Positions 1 through 15,478 of a stretch of 15,478 nucleotides of DNA are shown one piece after another. The position numbers and the translations under genes were made by a program. The notes below the pieces were generated by a model. It did not search any database, was not told where the DNA came from, and saw only the letters and a list, made by a program, of their open reading frames with translations. The DNA is from Escherichia coli (GTDB lineage: Bacteria > Pseudomonadota > Gammaproteobacteria > Enterobacterales > Enterobacteriaceae): assembly GCF_003334815.1 (NCBI RefSeq), contig NZ_QOWO01000055.1. One strand, 5' to 3'. Each line of letters opens with the position of its first letter. Positions within the stretch are counted from its first letter, which is position 1.

Positions 1-281
1 CGTTCACACGGACCGTGGAGGCCAGTACTGTTCAGCAGATTATCAGGCGCAACTGAAGCGGCATAATCTGCGTGGAAAGCTTCTTTCATTCGCTGAAAGT
101 GGAATGTATCCATGGAGAACACTTTATCAGCCGGGAAATAATGCGGGCAACGGTGTTTAATTATATCGAATGTGATTACAATCGGTGGCGGCGGCACAGT
201 TGGTGTGGCGGCCTCAGTCCGGAACAATTTGAAAACCAGAACCTCGCTTAGGCCTGTGTCCATATTACGTGGGTAGGATCA
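1..281 (+). mobile_element. IS3 insertion sequence, 3' portion only (window begins inside the element); right terminal inverted repeat ends at 281
   Basis: Translation of 2-251 matches, from memory, the C-terminal region of IS3 OrfB/InsF ([24 protein letters not shown] ... [56 protein letters not shown]). The 3' terminus GGCCTGTGTCCATATTACGTGGGTAGGATCA (251-281) resembles the IS3 right inverted repeat (TG...GGACAC motif on the complementary strand). Confidence 0.8.
2..251 (+). pseudogene. insF: IS3 transposase OrfB (InsF) C-terminal fragment, disrupted by an internal deletion and frameshift near position 77
   Basis: The reading frame changes between ...NLRG (ends 76) and FFHSLK... (starts about 81). 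The conserved IS3-family segment between them (SMS-K/R-G-N/C-C-Y/W-DNA-x-x-E) is absent. Stop codon TAG at 249-251. Confidence 0.75.
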
Positions 282-1739
282 CCGCACTCTTGACATAAGA
301 GTGCGGTCCGTGGAAAACGGAGTTGAAAAAATGGTGTCTGAAAGAAGGTACCATCATTGCGATGACAAACACTTTGGCGTGGATAATGTAATTAATTGCT
401 GAAATTGACCGTATATGCGGTAAGACTCATATCAGTATCAGGTCCGGTTAATTGCTGATACTGACATAAACTTTTTACAAAAGGATGAATGCAGAAGGTT
501 ACTCTAATGGCCAGAGTGATGACAATGATGGTCAGACGTTGACCTGCAGAAACTGCATTTTAATTGGTCTATAAAGTCTGCAAGAGGAATCAGGGCCAGA
601 TCAGTGAGTCTTATCGCGGCCCGAAGCTATGACTGAAAGAAGGCTGGATACAGAATTGCAACAATTTGGCAATGTCAGAACACAGAAGCTTTGCAAGCAG
701 GTGAAAGGTTATGTCTAGCAAAAGGAGTATATCAGAATACATCTACTGATGTACAAAACACAACAATAGCTTCATGATATATAAATACGTGATGACGAGT
801 GGTACTCCGCATGGTTATTTAACTTCTCAGCACCACTAATGATCCTGAGCAACTTCGTATTTGGGCCATTGCCATGGAGTAGAAAGCTGTGTCTGAGAAT
901 GCAGAATTTGAGAAAAGAATTCGCTTTCTTGGAGAGCTTCTGAAAATGGCACGCTAACAACGTTTTGTTAAAAAATGTGAATCACTTGCCGAGGCTGCAT
1001 TTTCTATTCGAGGAGAATGTTGACGTAGATATTACAGAAATCTCAGCGCATCAGGATAAACTGCTACCTTAGGTCAACCACCAAAAGAAAATACAATACG
1101 TCCAGTTTGTATGCCTTTAATAACACATCTTTTAAATGTTGAAGAATTATCCCGCCTGCTGAAGAACGTTGCTCTGAGTGTGATAAACCTTTTTATTCTT
1201 GATGATGTCAGCGAGAAGATGGAATATATCCCCGACTGGGTCGTGGTTACCCGGTTAAACATCTGGTGGCGCTAATAAATCTGGCAAGTCACATTCTGTT
1301 GAATGCTGTGACAGTGCCTTACCGAGAGAGCGAAATTGTGGTGTTCTAGTGCATAGTCGCCACCATTCCGGATAATTCTATTGCGTTGTTTTACAAGTTC
1401 TTTTACAGCGCAGATCTGTCGTTGACGTTGAATCAATAGCCTGGATTTCAGAACACAATGCCCGTTTGCTGGTTGGTCCGGCAGTAGCATTAATTCATTA
1501 TCTGAATGAAATGTGTCAATCCACAGAAACCGCTGTCAATGACGCATTTTGTCGGACGTTAACACGAGGAAGTCTGGCTATTCCACAATGCCATCTTCTT
1601 TCGTAATGGATTGAGAATGCTGGATTTTTAATTATATTACGCGCAGTATTGATCGTGTAAATGTTTTGCGGTCAGCAATGGTGGGGGATCCATTGTTCTG
1701 TTCAATGAATACCATCATACAATTGAATCAGGAGTCGGT

Positions 1740-5168: not shown

Positions 5169-5244
5169 TGGCTCCTCTGACTGGACTCGAACCAGTGACA
5201 TACGGATTAACAGTCCGCCGTTCTACCGACTGAACTACAGAGGA
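5169..5244 (-). tRNA. asnV: tRNA-Asn (anticodon GUU)
   Basis: Reverse complement is TCCTCTGTAGTTCAGTCGGTAGAACGGCGGACTGTTAATCCGTATGTCACTGGTTCGAGTCCAGTCAGAGGAGCCA, 76 nt with encoded CCA and anticodon loop CTGTTAA. Gene name assigned by synteny (between nac and erfK in K-12). Confidence 0.96.
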
Positions 5245-7576: not shown

Positions 7577-7652
7577 TGGCTCCTCTGACTGGACTCGAAC
7601 CAGTGACATACGGATTAACAGTCCGCCGTTCTACCGACTGAACTACAGAGGA
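7577..7652 (-). tRNA. asnU: tRNA-Asn (anticodon GUU)
   Basis: Identical 76-nt sequence to the other two tRNA-Asn copies (reverse complement of 7577-7652). Name by synteny (between cbl and yeeO). Confidence 0.96.
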
Positions 7653-9400: not shown

Positions 9401-9476
9401 TCCTCTGTAGTTCAGTCGGTAGAACGGCGGACTGTTAATCCGTATGTCACTGGTTCGAGTCCAGTCAGAGGAGCCA
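9401..9476 (+). tRNA. asnW: tRNA-Asn (anticodon GUU)
   Basis: TCCTCTGTAGTTCAGTCGGTAGAACGGCGGACTGTTAATCCGTATGTCACTGGTTCGAGTCCAGTCAGAGGAGCCA. Name by synteny (between yeeO and yeeN). Confidence 0.96.
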
Positions 9477-14777: not shown

Positions 14778-15050
14778 GATGACTTAAAGAGAGGTGCCCA
14801 TGAGTGGTAAGCGTTATCCCGAAGAGTTTAAAATTGAAGCAGTCAAACAGGTTGTTGATCGCGGTTATTCTGTTGCCAGCGTTGCAACACGTCTCGATAT
14901 CACCACCCACAGCCTTTACTCCTGGATAAAGAAGTACGGTCCGGATTCTTCCACTAATAAAGAACAGTCAGATGCTCAGGCCGAGATCCGCCGTCTCCAG
15001 AAAGAGCTGAAGCGGGTTACCGACGAACGGGACATATTAAAAAAAGCCGT
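14732..15050 (+). mobile_element. IS3-family insertion sequence (possibly IS600-like), 5' portion; left boundary approximate; interrupted at 15050/15051 by IS30
   Basis: Contains an IS3-family OrfA. Upstream sequence GGGTTTAACAGACACC carries the GGACAC-like motif common in IS3-family left ends. Left end placed 60-70 bp upstream of the orfA ATG by analogy; not verified. Confidence 0.55.
14800..15050 (+). pseudogene. IS3-family transposase OrfA (HTH plus leucine-zipper protein), C-terminally truncated by the IS30 insertion
   Basis: MSGKRYPEEFKIEAVKQVVDRGYSVASVATRLDITTHSLYSWIKKYGPDSSTNKEQSDAQAEIRRLQKELKRVTDERDILKKA, then reads into the IS30 end. Programmed -1 frameshift-type heptamer A_AAA_AAA at 15039-15045. 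The ORF-track start at GTG 14794 is 2 codons upstream. Confidence 0.75.
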
Positions 15051-15478
15051 TGTAGATTCAATCTGTCAATGCAACACCCCTTTCAATTATCTCTTTCGGT
15101 GTTTTGAACTTCAGTGTCTTTCTCGGTCTGTTGTTTAGCTGAGCAGCAACCAGATCTAGTTCATGTTGAGTATATTGGGCAAGACATGTCTTTTTAGGAA
15201 AGTACTGCCGAATTAGCCCATTTGTGTTCTCATTTGTTCCCCGCTGCCAAGGACTCTGAGGATCGCAGAAGTAAACTTTAACGCCGGTGCTGACAGTAAA
15301 TTCTAGATGTCTGGCCAGTTCCATTCCTCTGTCCCATGTCAGTGATTTTCTGAGTTCTGACGGTAAACTCAGGAATTTGTCGGTAAGAGCCTGATTTACT
15401 GAGACAGAATCTTTGCCCCTGAGTCTAAGGATGATCGTATAACGTGATTTTCGGTCTACAAGTGTGGCTATATGAGAG
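15051..15478 (-). mobile_element. IS30 insertion sequence, one end (terminal inverted repeat begins TGTAGATTCAAT at 15051); continues beyond the window
   Basis: The terminal sequence TGTAGATTCAATCTGTCAATGCAAC matches the remembered IS30 inverted repeat, and the adjacent ORF on the minus strand is the IS30 transposase C-terminus. Confidence 0.8.
15058..15478 (-). CDS. insI: IS30 transposase (DDE, IS30 family), C-terminal 139 codons; N-terminus lies outside the window
   Basis: The minus-strand frame is open from the window edge: SHIATLVDRKSRYTIILRLRGKDSVSVNQALTDKFLSLPSELRKSLTWDRGMELARHLEFTVSTGVKVYFCDPQSPWQRGTNENTNGLIRQYFPKKTCLAQYTQHELDLVAAQLNNRPRKTLKFKTPKEIIERGVALTD. It contains the IS30-family signature PWQRG-NENTNGL-RQYFPK. 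Confidence 0.85.
   Translation of the reverse strand, partial: SHIATLVDRKSRYTIILRLRGKDSVSVNQALTDKFLSLPSELRKSLTWDRGMELARHLEFTVSTGVKVYFCDPQSPWQRGTNENTNGLIRQYFPKKTCLAQYTQHELDLVAAQLNNRPRKTLKFKTPKEIIERGVALTD

Follow-up and report, generated by a model that had tools for sequence, protein, structure and literature searches.

The first 281 bp of the window (the whole 15,478-bp stretch of Escherichia coli DNA analysed here) are the right end of an IS3 element that lies upstream of cobUST, and this element has lost exactly 44 bp between two exact 10-bp direct repeats, which throws its transposase gene out of frame. The copy is a member of IS3 by descent, defective and not functional. The observations as a whole are best explained, at a probability that we would put near 0.88, by a repeat-mediated deletion that arose in place and gave rise to a frameshifted, non-autonomous and vertically inherited IS3. 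According to this explanation, an IS3 resident at the cob/CP4-44 junction would have lost positions 1001-1044 when two exact copies of CTGCGTGGAA, 44 bp apart, were misaligned, most likely by replication slippage. The OrfB and OrfAB products, deprived of E231, K238 and the rve_2 part of the catalytic core, would no longer support the catalysis of transposition. With its terminal inverted repeats and orfA unchanged, the element would have persisted as a non-autonomous sequence that is passed on vertically and that has decayed further in certain lineages.

E. coli 52F4 (NZ_CM147848.1) matches the entire window at 100% identity, and its full element measures 1214 bp (L005:3068-4281, a window position being the L005 position minus 4000), the remainder of the deleted IS3 sitting to the left of the window. 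Identity to IS3 is at the level of an isoform: outside the gap there are 0 mismatches to the IS3 of enterotoxigenic E. coli (ETEC) H10407 over the window, and position 904 and the deletion are all that distinguish the full 52F4 copy from intact ones. The last base of the window copy, at the end of ...GGATCA, is the true terminus of IS3, given that copies at other loci all diverge past ...TAGGATCA. The left end of the full 52F4 copy begins TGATCTTACC, and the two ends form imperfect inverted repeats with 5'-TG...CA-3' termini. To the left of the window, the 52F4 copy also has the overlapping orfA and orfB whose -1 programmed frameshift yields OrfAB, and this overlap is identical to that of copies that carry the PGAP label 'programmed frameshift'. 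The orfA region and the left end are identical to those of intact copies, and both terminal inverted repeats are intact.

The deletion and the reading frames

Pairwise alignments of the window to two intact elements, the IS3 of ETEC H10407 (L001:2068-3325) and IS3A of K-12, each reveal one 44-bp gap with its flanking repeats. The H10407 copy, which shares the right flank of the window, shows 0 differences over 320 bp apart from this gap. The earlier note on this DNA, which was made from the letters alone, had taken the region to be an IS3 copy with a deletion of roughly 44 bp, possibly between short direct repeats, and these proposals are borne out in every part. Intact IS3 reads AAT-CTGCGTGGAA-GTATGAGCGCAAAAGGTTGCTGCTACGATAATGC-CTGCGTGGAA-AGC, with 34 bp between the exact 10-bp repeats and a start-to-start spacing of 44 bp, and both copies of the repeat are seen in the H10407 and the K-12 element. 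At the junction, the window reads AAT-CTGCGTGGAA-AGC. The deletion corresponds to IS3 1001-1044 in 1258-bp coordinates, with a register that is ambiguous across the 10 repeat bases. Coordinates of the features in the window are collected in Table 1.

Table 1. Positions of the IS3 features and of the tRNA-Asn genes in the window
Feature	Positions	Strand	Remarks
Right-hand 281 bp of the 1214-bp deleted IS3	1..281	+	IS3 934-1000 plus 1045-1258 of the 1258-bp element; alignment to intact IS3
Upstream OrfB (InsF) frame	2..160	+	Native to G216 (74-76), then 27 out-of-frame residues; TAA at 158-160
GAC codon of D195, second aspartate of the DDE triad	11..13	+	In frame with upstream OrfB
Sole surviving 10-bp direct repeat CTGCGTGGAA, the deletion junction	68..77	+	Alignments to H10407 and K-12 IS3A
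Stranded C-terminal OrfB frame, C229 to A288	69..251	+	rve_2 region; TAG at 249-251; not joinable to the N-terminal part
GAA codon of the catalytic glutamate E231 (in VESFFHSLK)	75..77	+	Frame 3, out of frame with upstream OrfB
Right terminal inverted repeat, intact, ending ...GGATCA	242..281	+	28/40 positions match the left end in the full 52F4 copy; termini from flank comparison
tRNA-Asn genes, three	5169-5244, 7577-7652, 9401-9476	-, -, +	52F4 annotation

Since 44 is not divisible by 3, both OrfB and OrfAB run out of frame past InsF G216 and meet a stop 27 codons on. A break in OrfB had been placed between NLRG and FFHSLK, and it is real and located there. Frame 2 carries native OrfB followed by nonsense, and frame 3 carries the C-terminal part of OrfB, ending ...ENQNLA*. 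On the NCBIfam IS3 transposase profile the frame-2 piece occupies positions 279-302 and the frame-3 piece positions 317-369, with the 14 positions in between (303-316) missing.

Intact InsF has 288 residues, with Pfam rve at 126-222 and rve_2 at 231-287; its DDE residues are D135, D195 and E231, and K238 lies seven residues past the glutamate. The deletion takes out SMSAKGCCYDNA (InsF 217-228) plus two bases. The suggestion that a conserved segment had disappeared together with the catalytic glutamate therefore stands for the segment but not for the glutamate codon, which is still present in the DNA as part of the retained repeat. It is the frameshift, and not the removal of its codon, that keeps E231 out of the protein. 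The predicted product would comprise InsF residues 1-216, ending ...HNLRG, and 27 foreign residues. It would retain D135 and D195 and lack E231, K238 and the rve_2 region, and no single frame of the window holds a complete DDE (rve) core, in which 35 residues lie between D and E. Judging from the residues that it retains, the predicted product keeps the DNA-binding and multimerisation regions. From established facts on DDE transposases, we infer that such a truncated protein would be unable to catalyse transposition.

A frame break of this kind might also be expected of a distinct IS3-family member that naturally lacks the segment, or of an error in sequencing or assembly, and the raw break is the one observation that speaks for either. 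Against both, the window is base for base the same as intact IS3 on the two sides of the gap, the length of the gap and the early stop are those of a frameshifting lesion, and PGAP also marks the copy as frameshifted. Moreover, the same junction is present in 532 independently assembled complete genomes, which it would not be if it were an assembly artefact. The alignment to H10407 and this count together rule out both a distinct family member and an artefact.

Alleles of IS3 at the cob locus

The element lies between a phosphotriesterase-related pseudogene on one side and a decayed spacer upstream of cobU-cobS-cobT on the other. This is the cobU-yeeX site, which is listed as the CP4-44 site in the E. 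coli W genome paper and at which K-12 carries CP4-44 (PMC3032704). No 3-bp target-site duplication surrounds the window copy; the left flank is AGG and the right flank CCG, in 52F4 as in every copy with these flanks, and one side has thus been rearranged after insertion. The left flank differs by strain, being a php remnant, a DUF932 gene, an ISL3 remnant or an IS100 region, which shows that there were IS3-associated rearrangements on that side. The missing duplication, a sign that one end was rearranged later, is not an argument against the identity of the element as IS3.

A megablast search of window positions 1-400 against 5426 complete E. coli genomes detects IS3 in 5032 of them, and the IS3 end and the cob flank are both covered in 465. 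A few of the matches, such as that in ETEC H10407, span 444 bp rather than 400. Split matches merge into one place, so coverage counts of this sort cannot tell deleted from intact copies, and for this reason a short probe and strict E-value limits were used. The junction was probed with a 50-bp sequence spanning it, at an E-value limit too strict for intact IS3 to pass, and is identified in 532 of the 5426 genomes. It occurs at 567 places, of which 544 are chromosomal and 23 lie on plasmids, with up to 4 in a genome and nearly always at 100% identity. Intact IS3 at the cob right junction was counted with a 414-bp probe, for which a single-segment match to both an intact copy and the cob right flank was required, and is present in 37 genomes. 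Subtraction of these 37 from the 465 leaves the deleted allele at the cob junction in about 428 genomes.

Copies whose flanks are identical, with AATAAGG on the left of IS3 and CCGCACT on the right, can be arranged in a series. IS3 is intact with 904G in YD786 and OkiPb01676, and intact with the synonymous SNP 904A in 873.10. The deletion accompanies 904A in 52F4 (the same as the window), 203740 and ATCC 43886; to these two changes O26:H11 11368 adds a stop codon, 825A, and NCTC86 adds a right-end deletion that runs from IS3 1121 into the flank. All sampled deleted copies at the cob locus have 904A, and the intact 873.10 copy has it as well, so that the simplest order of events is insertion, 904A, the 44-bp deletion in place and further decay. 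This series points to decay in place and supports the status of a relic at the cob locus. The earlier note had spoken of a fixed relic, a description that fits the cob locus, with its approximately 428 genomes and their common right junction, but is too narrow for the allele as a whole, since the junction is also found in at least three other contexts, among them ETEC plasmids and an ICE.

Alternatively, another IS3 that was already deleted could have donated the deletion to this copy through homologous recombination or gene conversion, or the intact copies could be conversions back to wild type. Such exchange would agree with the occurrence of an identical junction on at least two SNP backgrounds and in at least four flank contexts. 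It would also agree with the cob-locus copy of ETEC 504237 (L016:2016-3090), a mosaic that combines 511A, 904A, the 44-bp deletion and an NCTC86-type right-end truncation and that testifies to exchange between IS3 copies, by recombination or gene conversion, in one lineage. In addition, H10407 and HS30-1 have an intact IS3 with the right flank found at cob and with different left flanks and SNPs, which shows that recombination or rearrangement has taken place at the element. However, the intact 873.10 copy has both flanks identical and carries the same 904A as all sampled cob-locus deleted copies, and the deleted copies of the 511A haplotype are without 904A. Although recombination between copies could in principle have imported the deletion or restored intact copies, we consider it quite improbable as the origin of this allele, and a deletion that occurred in place is the reading that we retain.

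The 52F4 copy is an ordinary pseudogenised insertion sequence that is already flagged in annotation, where PGAP gives it the label 'IS3 family transposase, frameshifted' (AC0BNW_RS01950). A full-text literature search combining IS3, '44-bp deletion' and transposase returned no description of the 44-bp allele, and one combining IS3 and cobU matched the E. coli W genome paper only. This silence on the allele reflects its low importance and not any novelty of kind. What is gained is the exact lesion of a pseudogene that PGAP merely calls 'frameshifted' in several hundred E. coli genomes, and a junction sequence, GCATAATCTGCGTGGAAAGC, that can mark lineages at the cob/CP4-44 junction. Beyond good annotation its importance is slight, and no long-standing question is opened or settled by it.

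The window has several other features of note. A hairpin with a perfect 12-bp stem, ACCGCACTCTTG-ACA-TAAGAGTGCGGT, occupies positions 281-307, its first base being the last base of IS3; it has a folding dG of -23.5 kcal/mol (z -4.35), includes a TTGACA hexamer and adjoins every sampled cob-locus IS3 copy. The decayed spacer between IS3 and cobU extends from 282 to 1739 and is presumably the remnant of a lost upstream cob/cbi operon. Within it, PGAP annotates, in the identical 52F4 record, an IS4-family transposase fragment at 1248-1436 and, just upstream of cobU, the C-terminal remains of a gene for cobalamin biosynthesis at 1445-1606. The annotation of cobU as frameshifted in ETEC 203740 (L008), ATCC 43886 (L009) and NCTC86 suggests that the cobUST salvage genes are still decaying in some lineages. 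Farther to the right, the 52F4 annotation places ldtA, nac, cbl and yeeO among the three tRNA-Asn genes; the tRNA-Asn cluster is a classic site of island insertion. Finally, another, different IS3-family transposase is represented in positions 14800-15478 by its N-terminal part (NCBIfam transpos_IS3 positions 1-82). It is interrupted at about 15058 by an IS30 that continues beyond the window, and the C-terminal part of the transposase resumes past IS30 in 52F4.

The same junction on plasmids and in an ICE

The deleted allele is also found away from the cob locus. It lies downstream of vapBC on the ETEC plasmid pTW10722_36 and, as a second copy, on the ETEC-2265 plasmid, which has another near parM, and it resides in an ICE adjoining the CBASS gene cap3 in strains 67-1, 504239 and TW11681. 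Among PLSDB plasmids, 18 contain the junction, many of them in two copies. The plasmid and ICE copies have 511A in common, mostly together with 1132A, and are without 904A. The 511A variant is rare, with 35 places in 21 genomes, and intact copies such as that of PapRG-06-5 can carry it as well. Thus, the deletion is seen on two haplotypes (904A and 511A/1132A) that each have intact counterparts, which favours independent recurrence at the repeats, although the ETEC 504237 mosaic shows that IS3 copies also recombine with one another. The junction allele has either recurred or been moved or copied between contexts.

One plasmid junction, the 96%-identical one of pOkiPb01685, was considered as an independent deletion, but was rejected. 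It is a recombinant of canonical IS3 with an old IS3-like remnant that is 75-90% identical to IS3 and sits next to iha on 57 STEC plasmids (L004:1907-3235; L020:1665-2190; L021:1552-2190). The exchange took place at GCATAATCTGCGTG and mimics the 44-bp junction; whether the iha-side remnant itself has the 44-bp deletion is ambiguous in the alignment. On pO104_H21, a canonical IS3 is inserted into the old IS3-like remnant.

Mobilisation of deleted copies in trans is possible. If the deleted IS3 were an active non-autonomous element mobilised by intact IS3, this would account for its occurrence on the chromosome as well as on plasmids and in an ICE, in up to 4 copies per genome. In favour of such movement, its ends are intact, its transposase is broken and the deleted allele is present in at least four flank contexts, three of which combine the deletion with the rare 511A. 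The number and plasmid share of the junction places given above would also be in keeping with movement. However, across eight flank contexts, no 3-bp target-site duplication was found around either deleted or intact copies, and thus no sampled deleted copy presents a clean insertion event. The deletion could have recurred on the 511A background, given the intact copies that carry this variant, and changes of flank could stem from exchange between IS3 copies by recombination. For the window copy at the cob locus, vertical inheritance is all that is seen. We therefore regard trans-mobilisation as unlikely. A more elaborate proposal is that the repeats are a hot spot for recurrent deletion, giving rise to a trans-mobilised IS3 that expresses OrfA and a catalytically dead, end-binding OrfAB and that dampens IS3 activity in the approximately 10% of E. 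coli genomes carrying the deletion; this we would consider a long shot. The explanation by deletion in place and vertical inheritance is thus preferred for the window copy, with the dissimilar AGG and CCG flanks, the presence of the junction on the 511A/1132A background and the ETEC 504237 mosaic as the points that run counter to it.

Replication slippage is the textbook explanation for deletion junctions at direct repeats. Three pairs of exact 10-bp direct repeats within 300 bp are present in intact IS3, with spacings of 117, 111 and 44 bp, of which the CTGCGTGGAA pair is the closest. The junctions predicted for the other two pairs were constructed and then searched for in complete E. coli genomes (hits H224-H235). 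The 111-bp deletion, given by GGCGCAACTG, is present in 8 genomes, and the 117-bp deletion, given by GTAAACAGCA, in 4, all on plasmids. The commonest deletion allele is therefore the one that comes from the closest-spaced pair, and the existence in nature of junctions for all three pairs shows that repeat-mediated deletion is a general route of IS3 decay.

Comparison with known systems

IS3A of K-12 (insE/insF; NC_000913.3 315229-316483) is the same element; it ends at the same right terminus and has the two CTGCGTGGAA repeats of intact IS3. Over IS3 934-1258, the window differs from it by the 44-bp gap and by one base, C instead of A at position 1214, which gives ENQNLA in the window and ENKNLA in K-12. 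Unlike K-12 IS3A, the window copy is without IS3 1001-1044, has InsF and the OrfAB fusion frameshifted past G216, and is not flanked by a 3-bp target duplication. The pseudogenes that PGAP annotates at the cob locus in O26:H11 11368 (ECO26_RS32235) and in 52F4 represent the same allele at the same site, with the extra stop codon as the difference in the former. Their labels flag the frameshift alone, leaving unstated the lesion itself, 44 bp between 10-bp repeats.

The classical deletion hot spots of lacI and RecA-independent repeat deletion are known examples of short-direct-repeat deletions by slippage. The IS3 deletion resembles those of the lacI type in that the repeats are exact, here 10 bp long and 44 bp apart, and in that one copy is left at the junction. 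Unlike in those cases, the mechanism is here deduced solely from the anatomy of the junction.

With respect to the protein, the offset of 36 residues between D195 and E231 of InsF equals that between D306 and E342 of the IS2 transposase (PMC3219604). A further parallel is OrfAB[149] of IS911 (PMC1636345), likewise an IS3-family transposase without its catalytic C-terminus, which can still bind the ends of the element. OrfAB[149] is an engineered derivative, whereas the product predicted here would retain D135 and D195 and add a foreign tail of 27 residues.
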